A DNA stretch of 64,000 bases from a virus, in IMG/VR virus record IMGVR_UViG_3300035703_000020, positions 32,001 through 96,000 of that record; one strand, written 5' to 3'. Every line of letters begins with the position of its first letter. Position 1 is the stretch's first letter. Of this stretch, positions 6,285 through 22,194 are shown piece by piece. A program made the translations under genes and the position numbers. The notes below the pieces were generated by a model, which was not told the DNA's origin, did not search any database, and saw nothing but the letters and a program-made list of their open reading frames with translations.

Positions 6285-7202
6285 ATGGCATTGAAGACGT
6301 TGACCTTCCGCGAGTTCGCCCGCGCGAGGCACCAGCTCTGGCTGGAGAGGACCTACGGCCTTGCGGCCGACCCAGTCGCAGACCCGCTTAGGGGCCACCA
6401 CTACACCAACCTCTGGCGCGAGCTCGACCGCGGCACGGTGTTCCTGTTCAACGAGGTGCAGCGGCCGAGGCTCGACGACCCGCTCGAGCTCGTGCGCCAC
6501 TCGATCATCTACCGCACGTTCAACGTGCGCGAGACGTACGAGGACGTATGCTTTAGGTTCGGCAACTCCCTCCATGGGGGAGTTACCGCGGAAAATCTAT
6601 ACGAGCACCTCTCGAAGCGCGAGCGCAACTTCACCAACGCCTACGTCCGCTGCTGCGACCTGAGGCTGGTGTGCGAGCAGCTGGCCAACCTCGACGAGCA
6701 CCTCGCGCCGATCGCCGCCGGGCTGATGCACGGGGCCGAGGACGTCGCGCGCGACGCCATCTCGCGGATCTACTCGTTCGGCGCCTTCACCGGCGACCAG
6801 CTGATGATGGACCTGTGCTGGGAGGGCGGCCCGTTCAAGGCGCGGTTCAACCCAAAGTTCGGGCCCGGGGCGCAGCGCGGCCTGGCGTACTGCCTCGAGA
6901 GCGGCTTCGGCAACGTGACGCATCTGATGGACGCCGGCCACGAGGAGATCCCCGAGGACTCGCGCCCGACGGCCGGCGGGCTGTCCATAGCCTACGACAT
7001 CCGCACGCTCGAGCACACCCTGTGCGAGCTCTCGAAGCACGTGAAGTTCGAGGGGCGGGGCGAGCGGCAGGTCAAGATGCGTCGGTACCAACGCTCGGAG
7101 CGGCCCGTCGACCCGCTGCCATTCACCTGGGGCCCGCCTGCGGTAAGATCGACATCAGCAGCAGCCGAGCCATGCTCTCGACCGACACCCGCCTCCGCCT
7201 AG
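6285..7202 (+). CDS. aGPT-Pplase clade 1 / 5-hydroxymethyl-pyrimidine DNA kinase (HMUDK) helical family protein
   Basis: HHYTNLWRELDRGT, YRTFN, FTNAY, GPGAQRGL and EHTLCELSK motifs of this base-hypermodification family. Confidence 0.75.
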   Translation: MALKTLTFREFARARHQLWLERTYGLAADPVADPLRGHHYTNLWRELDRGTVFLFNEVQRPRLDDPLELVRHSIIYRTFNVRETYEDVCFRFGNSLHGGVTAENLYEHLSKRERNFTNAYVRCCDLRLVCEQLANLDEHLAPIAAGLMHGAEDVARDAISRIYSFGAFTGDQLMMDLCWEGGPFKARFNPKFGPGAQRGLAYCLESGFGNVTHLMDAGHEEIPEDSRPTAGGLSIAYDIRTLEHTLCELSKHVKFEGRGERQVKMRRYQRSERPVDPLPFTWGPPAVRSTSAAAEPCSRPTPASA

Positions 7203-7483
7203 AGGACATAGCAGCGCGGATCGCCGGCGGGGTCGAGGTCTCCTTCGAGGAGATGACCTTCATCCAGAAGTGGGCCACGCATAATAGGCACGCGGCGAAG
7301 ATACTCAACCAGGCGCGGCGGGAGGCCATCCAGGGAAAGCCTGAGCCGGGCTCCCTCGACGAGTTCCTCAACGACCTCGACATCGGAGACCCGGACCCCC
7401 GCAACCACCTGATCGGCCCCCAGGACCCGATAGACCTGGCCCGCTGGTTCACCAACTCCGAGAACTGGTTCAACCAAGATTGA
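7172..7483 (+). CDS. conserved cyanophage hypothetical (MLSTDTRLRLEDI...LDIGDPDP)
   Basis: Motif recalled from cyanophages; preceded by CGGTAAG. Confidence 0.7.
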   Translation: MLSTDTRLRLEDIAARIAGGVEVSFEEMTFIQKWATHNRHAAKILNQARREAIQGKPEPGSLDEFLNDLDIGDPDPRNHLIGPQDPIDLARWFTNSENWFNQD

Positions 7484-7499
7484 AGACACAGACACAACG

Positions 7500-8162
7500 A
7501 TGAGAATCAAACTCTCCGAATTCGAGCTCCCGGGCAACCCCGGAGTCGAGGGCGAGGTCGTCTACAAGGCCATCGACTTCGACATCAACTCCGGCACCGA
7601 CCCCAATAACCCGGACTCGTGCACCTACATGGTGTGCGGCTGGCGGGAGGACGATGGGGCCGGCGTCCTCATCCACGGGACCCAGCGCGGCGGCACCGGC
7701 CGGTACCAGTGGCGAGTGCCCCGGCTGCTGAGCGCGCCGAACGACGAGGCCGGTGGCATCACGGTCACCCGCACCGAGTTCCACAACGTCGAGGCCCTCG
7801 AGGCGCCTTACATCCGGCTGGTGGGCTGCGTGCTGACAGAGGAGCGGCCCGAGCGGCGCGCGGGCTTCTTCTACGAGGGCTGGATGGACGGCTCCGGCGA
7901 CTGGTACCCGATCGCCGTGCCCGACCGCGAGGAGACCGTCGTCAAGGCGTCGAAGGCTGGCATCCTGGTCTGCTCCGACCCGTCGGAGACCGACGCCGTC
8001 CACGTGTACTGCCTGGAGAACCACGCCTGGAAGGAGCTCCGGACCGGCTACGCCGACCCCTGGGACGTGGACGAGATCATCCCGGCCGGGGACCTCTACG
8101 TCATCCGCCTGCTCCACTCCGACGGCAAGCGCTCGGACCTCTCCTACGCGCCGAAGAAGTGA
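7500..8162 (+). CDS. hypothetical protein
   Basis: 220-aa ORF with typical codon usage. Confidence 0.65.
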   Translation: MRIKLSEFELPGNPGVEGEVVYKAIDFDINSGTDPNNPDSCTYMVCGWREDDGAGVLIHGTQRGGTGRYQWRVPRLLSAPNDEAGGITVTRTEFHNVEALEAPYIRLVGCVLTEERPERRAGFFYEGWMDGSGDWYPIAVPDREETVVKASKAGILVCSDPSETDAVHVYCLENHAWKELRTGYADPWDVDEIIPAGDLYVIRLLHSDGKRSDLSYAPKK

Positions 8163-8263
8163 TGACGGACCCGGTCTGGCCGCTCATGGCCTTCATCGGC
8201 GTCGGGCTGCTGTTCGTCGTCGGGGTCATCGCGGTCATCCTGATCGAGGCGACCAGCGAGTGA
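8162..8263 (+). CDS. tiny membrane protein (MTDPVWPLMAFIGVGLL...)
   Basis: TGATG coupling; single transmembrane helix. Confidence 0.55.
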   Translation: MTDPVWPLMAFIGVGLLFVVGVIAVILIEATSE

Positions 8264-8314
8264 AGCGTCACAAGGGGGGTCCCGGAGGGGCCCCCTTCCC
8301 CGTATGATGGATCC

Positions 8315-20293: not shown

Positions 20294-20466
20294 GCAAGAA
20301 GAAGGCCTGCTTCTACACCATCCACCAACTGGCCGCGAACCGCCCGTACGTGACCATCGAGTTCTACGACCACAAGGAGCGGCGCATGCTCAGCTCCGTG
20401 GACGTCGTGCTCAACCTGGAGTACCATGACGATCACCAGATCGGCTCGTTCGTGACCTCACGCTGA
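20290..20466 (+). CDS. hypothetical protein
   Basis: ATGA-coupled 58-aa ORF. Confidence 0.5.
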   Translation: MSKKKACFYTIHQLAANRPYVTIEFYDHKERRMLSSVDVVLNLEYHDDHQIGSFVTSR

Positions 20467-20504
20467 GCGCCCGCGAGCACAATAGACCCAGGAAAAACCG
20501 CACC

Positions 20505-21074
20505 ATGCTCATCATCGTCTCCGGCCCCGACCGCGTCGGCAAGTCGACCCTGATCAACGCCATGGCCGAGGAGCTCGGCCGCGACATCACCTACGTCGCC
20601 CACCACGGCCCGCCGCCAAAGACCAACGACAACATCTTCGACGTCTACCGCGACACCATCCAGGACTGGAAGTGGTCCGGCAAGCCGTACGCGATCTTCG
20701 ACCGCGCGTACCCCTGCAGCTACATCCTCGAGCAGCACCGCCGGCGCAACGCGGGCCACTTCGAGGACGTCATCGACTTCGAGATCGAGCTGATGGACGC
20801 CGTCGACTCCGTCGTGCACCTCGGCGTCTTCCGGCCCTGGCACTGGTCGGCGCCGCTGCACGTCGAGGAGGTCCGCGAGGAGAACCCCGGCGCCGCCCCG
20901 TGGCTGATCCGCGACGAGTACATCGCCCGCATGCAGGAGCACCAGATCTACACCGAGCAGCTCCTCAACTTCTACGACAACATCTCGATGTTCCCCAACG
21001 CCCGCATCGAGAACGAGGAGACGGTCGGGTCGATGGCGCTCGCCCGCTGCCGCGAGGCGCTGCGGAGGTCCTGA
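20505..21074 (+). CDS. dNMP/thymidylate kinase-like P-loop kinase
   Basis: IVSGPDRVGKST, IFDR; next to the ThyA-like gene. Confidence 0.8.
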   Translation: MLIIVSGPDRVGKSTLINAMAEELGRDITYVAHHGPPPKTNDNIFDVYRDTIQDWKWSGKPYAIFDRAYPCSYILEQHRRRNAGHFEDVIDFEIELMDAVDSVVHLGVFRPWHWSAPLHVEEVREENPGAAPWLIRDEYIARMQEHQIYTEQLLNFYDNISMFPNARIENEETVGSMALARCREALRRS

Positions 21075-21295
21075 TGCCCTTCCCGATGCCGCAGGACCCG
21101 GGATTCCTGCTCGAGTACTGCCGGGAGTGGATCGACGACGCCAACGAGCGATACGACAAGGGCATGAGAGCCATGGCCCAGGAGAGCATGCGCTCGGCCG
21201 CCCAGCTCTACATCCAGCTCCCCCGCGGCTACAGCAACCCCGAGCTGGAAAAATACTACCAGGAGACCCTCAAGAAGGTGTACGGACAAGTATGA
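21074..21295 (+). CDS. hypothetical protein
   Basis: Coupled between the kinase and ThyA-like genes. Confidence 0.55.
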   Translation: MPFPMPQDPGFLLEYCREWIDDANERYDKGMRAMAQESMRSAAQLYIQLPRGYSNPELEKYYQETLKKVYGQV

Positions 21296-22194
21296 TCATC
21301 CGCGAAATGAGCAAGAAACCCGCGCACGTCGTCCACTTCGGCGATCACGTCATCAAGAGCGAAAACTGGGACTACGTCTATGGCGAGTACCTGTTCGACA
21401 TCATGACCCACGGCGAGCAGTTCGTCGGACGCAACGGCGAGACGAAGGCCGCCTTCGGCTGCTCGGCGCGCGTCGACCTGCGCTGCGGGTTCCCGCTCAC
21501 CAGGCTCCGCAAGATGCCGTGGAAGAACCTCGTCCGCGAGTTCCTCTTCGACGTCGGCTTCAACACCAACGTCGAGGCGCTCGGCCCCGCCAAGCACTTC
21601 TGGGACTTCCTCGCCGACGAGAACGGCGAGCTCGGCGCGTCGGCCTACTGCAGGCAGTGGCGCCAGTGGCCGCCCTCTGCCCAGGGCGCGGAGGTGCCCA
21701 ACGAGACGCTCGAGACCGGGCGGCCGGTCGACCAGCTCCGGGACGTCGTCCACCTGCTGAACAACCACCCCAACTCCAGGCAGGCGACCGTCATCACCCA
21801 CAACCCCACCGCGATCGACCCCGCCTGCCCTCCCTGCCACATCGCGATGCAGTTCGCGCCGTCCAAGGACGGGTGGCTCGACCTGATGGTCCCGGCCCGC
21901 TCCAACGACATGGTGGTCGGCTTCCCGCTGGACATCGCCCGCTACGCGCTGATCCTCAAGGCGGTCGCGATGATGACCTGCAAGGCGGCCCGCTACGTGT
22001 ACATGCCGAGCGCCAACTCGCACATCTACGAGAACTGCTACGATCTCGTCGACGAAATGATCGAGCGCGAGCCCAAGCCGGAGTGCCAGGTGCGGCTGAC
22101 CCACGCGCCGCTCAGCTTCAAGGAGCTGACGCTCGACAGCTTCGAGCTGACGGGCTACGACCCGCACCCGGCCATCAAGGTCGCCGTCAACTGA
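21292..22194 (+). CDS. thymidylate synthase-fold enzyme with Asp at the Asn177 position (possible dCMP methylase/hydroxymethylase)
   Basis: GFPL, FWDFLADENGELG, PPCH, RSNDMVVGFPLDI, HIY, YDPHPAIK. Confidence 0.88.
   Translation: MIIREMSKKPAHVVHFGDHVIKSENWDYVYGEYLFDIMTHGEQFVGRNGETKAAFGCSARVDLRCGFPLTRLRKMPWKNLVREFLFDVGFNTNVEALGPAKHFWDFLADENGELGASAYCRQWRQWPPSAQGAEVPNETLETGRPVDQLRDVVHLLNNHPNSRQATVITHNPTAIDPACPPCHIAMQFAPSKDGWLDLMVPARSNDMVVGFPLDIARYALILKAVAMMTCKAARYVYMPSANSHIYENCYDLVDEMIEREPKPECQVRLTHAPLSFKELTLDSFELTGYDPHPAIKVAVN

Follow-up and report, generated by a model that had tools for sequence, protein, structure and literature searches.

The stretch of DNA analysed here (the window) comprises 64,000 nucleotides, bases 32001-96000 of the 149,878-bp IMG/VR virus record IMGVR_UViG_3300035703_000020, and encodes a ThyA homologue, a kinase, a DNA polymerase and an MBD4-like DNA glycosylase that may together make a modified cytosine and protect it in phage DNA. 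A PF18723 protein, a nuclease resembling T4 endonuclease II (EndoII, DenA) and a 2-oxoglutarate (2OG)-Fe(II) oxygenase lie in the same region and were linked to this system in a first-pass annotation. All the genes named in that annotation proved to be real and correctly typed, at or near the places assigned to them and on the + strand (Table 1). As had also been noted, they are not clustered, since the modification genes are spread over 16 kb, interleaved with RNA-repair and phosphoesterase genes.

Table 1. Features of the window related to the putative cytosine modification system (positions within the window).
Feature	Position	Strand	Support
2OG-Fe(II) oxygenase, PF13759 (2OG-FeII_Oxy_5)	5369..6013	+	Pfam E 7.7e-21
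PF18723 protein (HMUDK_hel / aGPT-Pplase clade of M6 gp55, PhiJL001 gp19)	6285..7202	+	Pfam E 3.5e-21
GIY-YIG nuclease, T4 EndoII (DenA) / R.Hpy188I fold	12420..12890	+	phrog_1111 E 4.4e-4
Conserved open reading frame (ORF), no family assigned, directly upstream of the glycosylase	14328..14906	+	73-92% identical, syntenic in relatives
MBD4-like helix-hairpin-helix (HhH) DNA glycosylase	14925..15563	+	PDB MBD4 glycosylase domains E 6e-11 (phmmer)
Two conserved ORFs between glycosylase and polymerase	15560-16423, 16401-16808	+	syntenic in L006, L016-L019
Family-A DNA polymerase, mitochondrial Pol-gamma-type exonuclease domain	17079..20117	+	PF18136 (DNApol_Exo) E 5.7e-58, PF00476 (DNA_pol_A)
P-loop (d)NMP-kinase-like protein, directly upstream of ThyA	20505..21074	+	Walker A GPDRVGKST
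ThyA homologue, dCMP-specific type (C143, C146, H147, D169, D177, E. coli numbering)	21292..22194	+	PF00303 E 4.6e-55

The record has a 127-bp terminal overlap, classed as direct terminal repeats, and corresponds to a complete genome of ~150 kb with 65% GC. Gene calling, based on GC content at third codon positions (GC3), placed all credible genes on the + strand. The part of the genome outside the window carries two Photo_RC (photosynthetic reaction-centre) genes and genes for SpeD, ThyX, ribonucleotide reductase, two sigma-70 factors, a Trp-halogenase-like enzyme (E 5e-101), a pyrimidine-dimer glycosylase of the T4 endonuclease V type and an SLH-domain protein. Within the window lie genes for a Mu-like portal, capsid and baseplate and for PhoH. 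Judging by this gene content (reaction-centre proteins, SpeD, ThyX, sigma factors, Mu-like structural genes and PhoH), the genome is that of a large cyanophage. The stretch from the polymerase to ThyA gave no match by megablast against 50,697 phage genomes, and no close relative was present in that collection; the nearest named relatives are the TIM5-like cyanophages, at the protein level only. Co-occurrence on contigs from ENA, Logan and NCBI was assessed on 10-kb flanks.

The ThyA homologue has an ORF that is open from 21127 and is called at 300 aa in the protein database. In the HMMER alignment its 'FPLDIARY' falls on the 'LPFNIASY' of E. coli, so Asp replaces Asn177. Cys146, Arg166/Ser167/Asp169, Tyr94 and Glu58 are all kept. 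Like Asp177 and Cys143, they are the same in 120/120 homologues, whose identity ranges from 60 to 100%. The clade defined by C143, H147 and D177 includes the TIM5-like cyanophages and, at 60% identity and above, no fewer than 120 homologues. Asp177 is shared with the ThyA of S-TIM5 and with two enzymes proven to use dCMP, the Xp12 methylase and T4 gp42. The N177D change has been described as the switch from dUMP to dCMP as substrate (PMC8670742, PMC13326640), and D177 homologues are statistically tied to contigs with modified cytosine (PMC8670742). Furthermore, with its own ThyX and dCMP deaminase the genome can do without the ThyA homologue for dTMP. The earlier call of a dCMP-type ThyA was backed by Asp177 in the 120 homologues and by the separate ThyX, and the prediction that the enzyme uses dCMP, for synthesis of a C5-modified dCMP at the nucleotide level, is well supported.

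Concerning the product, 5-hydroxy-dCMP was ruled out: D169N marks the 5-hydroxy-dCMP synthases of the RB69 gp48 type (PMC13326640), and Asp169 ('RSND') is kept in 120/120 homologues. Other product-diagnostic residues have been described (PMC6400193, PMC13326640), an Asp or Glu three positions before the catalytic Cys being the mark of a hydroxymethylase. In the clade of the window this position is an invariant Cys (120/120), which departs from the T4-type hydroxymethylases; it is Asp in T4 gp42, M6 gp58 and PhiJL001 gp24, Asn in Xp12-type methylases and Leu in E. coli. The C-terminus, 'YDPHPAIKVAVN', aligns to 'YDPHPGIKAPV..' of E. coli, and the thymidylate synthase (TS) tail, whose loss is expected of hydroxymethylases, is therefore kept; it is partly kept in Xp12 and absent from T4 gp42, M6 gp58 and PhiJL001 gp24. 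In TS, this tail closes off the active site so that hydride transfer can take place. Cys143 and the kept tail favour a predicted methylase, and in its residue features (D177, a non-acidic residue at 143, a TS-like tail) the homologue matches the Xp12-type methylase, with an identity of 26-29% and no dihydrofolate reductase (DHFR) in the genome.

On the other hand, the context points toward hydroxymethyl. Both 'solvent gate' residues of TS (W83, L143) are swapped for smaller ones (L, C). No match to DHFR was obtained in this genome, in S-TIM5, in S-TIM54 or in the relative G005, whereas Xp12-type phages encode DHFR beside ThyA. The absent DHFR, the solvent-gate changes, the alpha-glucosyltransferase (AGT)-like gene of S-TIM5 and S-TIM54 and the ThyA partners of PF18723 (see below) all favour a hydroxymethyl product. 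Weighing both sides, 5-methyl-dCMP has slightly better than an even chance of being the product, 5-hydroxymethyl-dCMP falls somewhat short of an even chance, and any other product is very improbable. This ThyA clade is widespread and uncharacterised, and its product does not follow from the published rules; that product bears on the DNA chemistry of a common group of cyanophages.

The kinase directly upstream of ThyA is weakly similar to thymidylate and dNMP kinases; it matches phrog_761 (thymidylate kinase, E 1e-7), and its Atlas neighbours carry Thymidylate_kin/dNK. Its phage relatives were found only in TIM5-like cyanophages, and every relative examined has the kinase and ThyA genes in synteny. 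This protein is expected to phosphorylate the modified dCMP. PDB sequence searches with it and with the GIY-YIG nuclease returned nothing useful. The possibility of a split 5-HMUDK was rejected, since the match to M6 gp54 (E 0.037) is at P-loop level only, and it is also countered by the conservation of the kinase where PF18723 is missing, both in relatives and in TIM5-like phages. The polymerase, 86-92% identical in relatives, would have to accept the modified dCTP.

With respect to the glycosylase, the Asp in its 'YDSWRIF' is aligned to the catalytic Asp of MBD4, and the HhH and catalytic-Asp motif 'G.G.Y..DS..IF' is invariant across the phage family, including the Xp12 group and S-TIM54. 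The Pfam HhH-GPD score is 24.4 bits, just below the cut-off of 26.2. Deamination converts 5-methylcytosine (5mC) into T and 5-hydroxymethylcytosine (5hmC) into 5-hydroxymethyluracil (5hmU). MBD4 excises both T and 5hmU opposite G (PMC3458566), and the phage enzyme would presumably do the same.

The glycosylase belongs to a conserved block with the order unassigned ORF, glycosylase, two ORFs, polymerase, kinase and ThyA, which is kept in the relative L006 and in six IMG/VR contigs (L016-L019, L118, L119), while the identity of the glycosylase falls from 91% to 58-59%. The first ORF of the block had no match in Pfam, PHROG or Atlas, and the two ORFs before the polymerase had no significant family match. 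Among the 50,697 phage records, glycosylase homologues were present in 14, belonging to the Xp12 group and S-TIM54 only. In Xp12, AXL_1 and Donnerlittchen the glycosylase gene is the first of a tight operon, followed by those for an NTP pyrophosphohydrolase, ThyA (D177), dCMP deaminase and DHFR. The family is larger in IMG/VR, with at least 540 matches, and a ThyA gene lies within 10 kb in 6/80 loci, all of them from the lineage of the window. Hence, the proposed place of this enzyme in a modified-cytosine system gained from its conserved position beside polymerase, kinase and ThyA and from its presence in the Xp12-type ThyA operon, but the family also occurs in viruses of ~360 kb without ThyA. 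A tie between the glycosylase and a dCMP-type ThyA is supported in two unrelated phage lineages, though it is not universal. In a literature search, neither the Xp12 glycosylase nor the glycosylase-ThyA partnership seemed to have been discussed in print. The occurrence of an MBD4-like glycosylase beside a dCMP-type ThyA in two unrelated phage groups offers a testable answer to the problem of deamination in DNA with fully 5-substituted cytosine.

The PF18723 protein is a stand-alone protein without a P-loop. A profile built from 18 homologues matches PhiJL001 gp19 (5.7e-27) and M6 gp55 (1.5e-18) and gives no match to M6 gp51. The AlphaFold2 (AF2) model of the protein (pLDDT 83) has as its closest PDB fold 8z2m (prob 0.99, TM 0.45-0.49, with a modest E of 0.08), followed by MutY/OGG HhH glycosylases; 8z2m is PUGT, the gp46 of PaMx11, a 5-phosphomethyl-deoxyuridine (5-PmdU) glycinyltransferase. 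The sequence 'EHTLCE..KH', which does not vary in the family and contains the Glu-x3-Cys motif, lines up with 'ETVLCK..SH' of M6 gp51. Within that gp51 motif lie the Cys used by Pplase2 for catalysis and its metal-binding Glu (PMC13458397). As far as can be read from its sequence, the protein is a paralogue of the amino-acid:DNA transferases (AADTs) with its catalytic residues intact. M6 gp55 is dispensable for glycinyl-thymidine formation and is missing from the protein-function table (PMC8989533), and no assigned function for its clade was found in the literature.

The pairing of a PF18723-type protein with a ThyA-family enzyme has been described as the rule (PMC9599517). Among 80 PF18723 loci in IMG/VR, 58 have a ThyA homologue within ~10 kb: 47 of the dUMP-hydroxymethylase type, 8 of the dCMP-hydroxymethylase type, one Xp12-like, one other and one truncated, so that the hydroxymethylase type accounts for 55/57 classifiable partners. 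In a quick maximum-likelihood tree, in which long branches are present, the protein of the window falls in a clade of 12 rows (SH-aLRT 99). Its known partners are only D177 ThyA types (three lineages) or methyltransferases (P0022: MT-A70, Dam, C5). The partners in the 63-row sister clade are 43 dUMP-hydroxymethylase-type, 3 dCMP-hydroxymethylase-type, one Xp12-like and one other. Regarding these data, the PF18723 protein probably acts on modified cytosine in DNA, after replication. The separation of uracil-linked and cytosine-linked branches provides a handle on the M6 gp55 clade, and the cytosine-linked branch is a pointer to possible new cytosine hypermodifications, with relevance to restriction resistance and DNA-labelling tools.

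The nearest outgroups of this protein (L035/L116, L036/L115, L038/L114 and L041/L117, all from IMG/VR) show 39-48% identity and are located 5-11 kb from a ThyA with the full dCMP-hydroxymethylase signature (D143, T147, D177). Another homologue, 43-46% identical, was observed in a WhiB-encoding contig of 105 kb (GCA_046463975.1; L009:9405-15045) flanked by genes for an MT-A70 methylase and a Dam-family protein. Some 3 kb downstream of it is a gene for a C5 DNA methyltransferase, and no ThyA was found within 10 kb.

Taking the whole set of genes into account, it is fairly probable that this cyanophage puts a C5-modified cytosine into its DNA via the nucleotide pool, with a mismatch glycosylase guarding it. 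The ThyA homologue, with Asn177 changed to Asp, would add a one-carbon unit at C5 of dCMP and not of dUMP, a substrate suggested by its residues; the kinase encoded directly upstream would phosphorylate the product, the Pol-gamma-like polymerase would incorporate the modified nucleotide, and dTMP would be supplied by the phage ThyX and the dCMP deaminase. Once in DNA, the modified base would deaminate, a 5mC leaving T and a 5hmC leaving 5hmU opposite G. The host uracil glycosylase would be blind to both lesions, which would explain why the phage keeps an MBD4-like glycosylase in its replication module; homology and conserved linkage suggest that this enzyme removes T or 5hmU opposite G. The make-and-repair core formed by ThyA, kinase, polymerase and glycosylase is supported as a predicted unit, and the PF18723 enzyme, the EndoII-like nuclease and the oxygenase, the last of which is probably unrelated, would be optional add-ons. 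The co-occurrence in relatives that the first-pass annotation named as a check was observed for the glycosylase-polymerase-kinase-ThyA block, but PF18723 is patchy, the nuclease is rare and the oxygenase is not conserved at its site.

Several observations weigh against this reading. The genome is a metagenomic assembly, and the product of ThyA is ambiguous, with residue signals for methyl and a context for hydroxymethyl. No dCTPase-type enzyme (MazG, PRA-PH, dUTPase) was matched in the genome, and complete substitution of C can therefore not be taken for granted. In 20/20 large contigs of the glycosylase group with 36-43% identity, no ThyA and no C5-methyltransferase was found. PF18723 is missing at the syntenic site of the relative G003 and from the 86%-complete G005, which still have ThyA and the glycosylase; this protein is for that reason considered an optional layer, and its proposed role in a cytosine system is backed by the known partners of its subclade, all of them cytosine-C5 enzymes, but not by these two genomes. 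Searches for a 5-HMUDK-like kinase, a pyridoxal phosphate (PLP) enzyme, a radical-SAM enzyme or a glycosyltransferase found none in the genome, and an M6 gp54-like (5-HMUDK) protein gave no match there in a search run without a positive control. As for the nuclease, no Arg is present 6-8 residues after YIG in the alignment with DenA (the next one is at +22), and only 3 homologues were found in 5.8 billion proteins.

The same region could also be a chance set of ordinary replication, repair and nucleotide genes, in which ThyA would only alter the pool, for example through a route from 5-methyl-dCMP to dTMP as proposed for Xp12-type phages, the glycosylase would serve general mismatch or uracil repair, and the PF18723 protein and the nuclease would have unrelated roles. 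The dispersal of the genes over 16 kb, among RNA-repair and phosphoesterase genes, fits this idea, as do the many viruses that have the glycosylase family without ThyA or a C5-methyltransferase and the lack of a dCTPase match in the genome; moreover, a dCMP deaminase is present, and 5mC-selective deaminases that yield dTTP are known (bioRxiv 10.1101/2024.12.05.627091). However, a second thymidylate route would be redundant because the phage already has ThyX, the dedicated kinase beside ThyA is conserved, and D177 ThyA is statistically tied to modified-cytosine contigs (PMC8670742). The order glycosylase-polymerase-kinase-ThyA is, besides, kept down to 59% identity and recurs as the Xp12-type operon. 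A chance set is thus considered unlikely. Starting instead from a modified cytosine, the oxygenase could be given a part in a two-stage hypermodification, in which ThyA would lead to 5mC in DNA, one of the PF13759 oxygenases would convert it to 5hmC and the PF18723 enzyme would replace or decorate the hydroxymethyl group to give an undescribed hypermodified cytosine. In favour of this, the ThyA residues point to a methylase, and PF18723 relatives nearly always lie beside producers of hydroxymethyl-pyrimidines. The oxygenase gene is only one small ORF upstream of PF18723, post-replicative pathways initiated by dioxygenases and involving AADTs exist in phages (PMC13229309), and 2OG oxygenases (PMC10087341) and an AGT-like transferase are both present in TIM5-like phages whose ThyA is of this type. 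But the oxygenase is a PF13759 protein and not a TET/JBP enzyme, and a genome-wide search at E 0.1 gave no match to Tet_JBP (PF12851). The genome has five PF13759 paralogues, as is typical of cyanophages, four of them outside the window, and L006 lacks the oxygenase gene next to PF18723. Searches of the genome also found no kinase, PLP enzyme or other tailoring enzyme for such a pathway. The position of the oxygenase two genes from PF18723 was thus correctly noted in the first-pass annotation, the link to modification was not borne out, and the oxygenase is probably unrelated to base modification; two-stage hypermodification is quite doubtful.

It could further be argued that the substrate of the PF18723 enzyme is not cytosine but 5hmU derived from thymine, as in M6-, ViI- and PhiJL001-type phages; this 5hmU would come from 5hm-dCMP or 5hm-dCTP deaminated by the phage deaminase, or from oxidised T. 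For every relative studied by biochemistry (Pplase2) the substrate is 5-PmdU (PMC8989533, PMC13458397), the dUMP-hydroxymethylase type makes up 47/58 of the ThyA partners, and the dCMP deaminase of this phage also fits, as phage deaminases can convert 5hmdC nucleotides into 5hmdU in DNA (bioRxiv 10.1101/2024.12.05.627091). Against this, the subclade of the window is split from the dU-linked clade with 99% support and is partnered by D177 ThyA or a C5-methyltransferase, and neither a dUMP hydroxymethylase nor a 5-HMUDK was found in the genome, which makes a 5hmU substrate rather improbable. Within the preferred reading of a pool-made modified cytosine, a more far-reaching possibility is an undescribed cytosine derivative: the product of the C143/D177 ThyA would be converted at C5 in DNA by the cytosine-specific PF18723 branch through its conserved Cys, with no 5-HMUDK and possibly after oxidation by one of the PF13759 oxygenases, the glycosylase would police deamination, and TIM5-like phages would perhaps do the same. 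This possibility is given a low probability.

In comparison with known systems, the core works like those of Xp12 or T4, with a different and uncharacterised ThyA clade. Like the Xp12 group (Bradleyvirinae), the phage has a D177 ThyA, a dCMP deaminase, a TS-like 'Y(D/N)P(H/K)P' tail and a homologous MBD4-like glycosylase, 34% identical between the two. Unlike in Xp12, where these genes form a single operon with the NTP pyrophosphohydrolase and DHFR genes, here they are dispersed and neither of the latter was found; the Xp12 ThyA also differs in having N143/P147 in place of C143/H147. ThyX and PF18723 are present in this phage and were not seen among the Xp12 genes compared, a comparison that included no dedicated search for either in Xp12.

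The T4 system (gp42, gp1, gp56, EndoII/DenA and glucosyltransferases) resembles that of the window in its dCMP-specific ThyA homologue and kinase and in its EndoII-fold GIY-YIG nuclease. Another likeness is the presence of Rnl1- and polynucleotide kinase (PNK)-type genes near the nuclease, as pseT, rnlA and denA are neighbours in T4. Nevertheless, the ThyA of the window is only 23-24% identical to gp42, has no Asp or Glu three positions before the Cys and keeps the C-terminal tail. T4 has a dCTPase and a glucosyltransferase, neither of which was found in this genome, and no MBD4-like glycosylase.

The TIM5-like cyanophages (Aurunvirus: S-TIM5 and S-TIM54) share the ThyA with C143/H147/D169/D177 (41% identity), a homologous kinase, a Pol-gamma-like polymerase and the lack of DHFR, and S-TIM54 also has the MBD4-like glycosylase. 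Unlike this genome, in which none was found, they carry an AGT-like glucosyltransferase of the T4 DNA alpha-glucosyltransferase family (S-TIM5 NC_019516.2:6802-7188; S-TIM54 OP053362.1:6614-7336, L031), detected at 35-39 bits, over the cut-off, with a model validated on T4, S-TIM5 and S-TIM54. They also differ in giving no tblastn match to the PF18723 protein of the window and in having these genes far apart. The combination of a C143/D177 ThyA and an AGT-like protein hints at glucosylated hydroxymethylcytosine in marine cyanophages. To our knowledge, the DNA chemistry of TIM5-like phages is unpublished, and a literature search found no paper on DNA modification in TIM5.

Finally, phages with thymidine hypermodification (M6, PaMx11, ViI, PhiW-14 and SP10, together with PhiJL001 and the pelagiphage pairs of TS and aG/PT-PPlase) are comparable through the PF18723 protein, which is homologous to M6 gp55 and PhiJL001 gp19, has the fold and Cys motif of the AADT and DADT enzymes and is likewise paired with a ThyA-family enzyme. 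They differ in that the ThyA partner is here of the dCMP type and not a dUMP hydroxymethylase, and no 5-HMUDK, PLP or radical-SAM enzyme was found.

The GIY-YIG nuclease had been proposed to discriminate unmodified DNA. Its resemblance to EndoII in family and fold is sound: T4 DenA itself matches phrog_1111 (2.3e-65), which places it in the same family as the match of the nuclease, and BLASTP gave 31% identity to DenA over 71 aa. The protein carries the GIY-YIG-like motif 'VYVITIGDEVYKIG', and the only significant Foldseek matches of its AF2 model (pLDDT 81) are Hpy188I (4e-6) and T4 EndoII (6.5e-4). Conservation of 'VYVIT.G..VYKIG' and of Glu124 agrees with the EndoII/Hpy188I fold. The tie to the system was not sustained, given the three homologues mentioned above, and the preference for unmodified C is an analogy with T4. 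A tblastn search against phages gave no match, and among the relatives examined the gene is present in one, its occurrence being confined to the closest relatives. The nuclease is a rare, lineage-restricted accessory gene that may, by analogy, cut unmodified (host) DNA.

A T4-like RNA-repair set is interleaved with these genes, consisting of an Rnl1-type RNA ligase, a PNK-like AAA_33 kinase and calcineurin-type phosphoesterases (8315-9403, 13160-13600 and 13489-14292; also 9784-10413 and 11674-12420). The ligase, the PNK-like kinase and the third phosphoesterase are present in the relative G002 and absent in L006. The AAA_33 kinase at 13160 was rejected as part of the modification system, as it is PNK-like (phrog_505) and goes with Rnl1 and the phosphoesterase in this variable set.

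The large contigs with a distant glycosylase (G011-G030, the contigs behind L121-L188) constitute a coherent group with genomes of ~360 kb and a 120-aa MBD4-like glycosylase, 36-43% identical to that of the window. One of them, G025, is complete (364,404 bp, direct terminal repeats) and has neither ThyA nor a C5-methyltransferase. A search for the capsid of nucleocytoplasmic large DNA viruses (NCLDV) in seven contigs of the group, run without a positive control, was empty. Closer to the window, the glycosylase homologue of G003 (L019:10001-10564) has an in-frame stop in the matched stretch, due to either a pseudogene or a sequencing error.

Concerning restriction sites, 4-mer palindromes with G/C (GGCC, CCGG, GCGC, GATC) occur at expectation across the genome (observed/expected 0.96-1.05), and ATCGAT, AAGCTT, TTCGAA and ATGCAT are 3-6 fold under-represented in the whole genome; these counts say nothing firm on modification. 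A conserved protein of 154 aa is encoded at 10592-11056 of the window; it has no Pfam match and corresponds to phrog_11227 ('protease', E 2e-49). Its gene is syntenic in all relatives and adjoins the glycosylase gene in L020 and L021.

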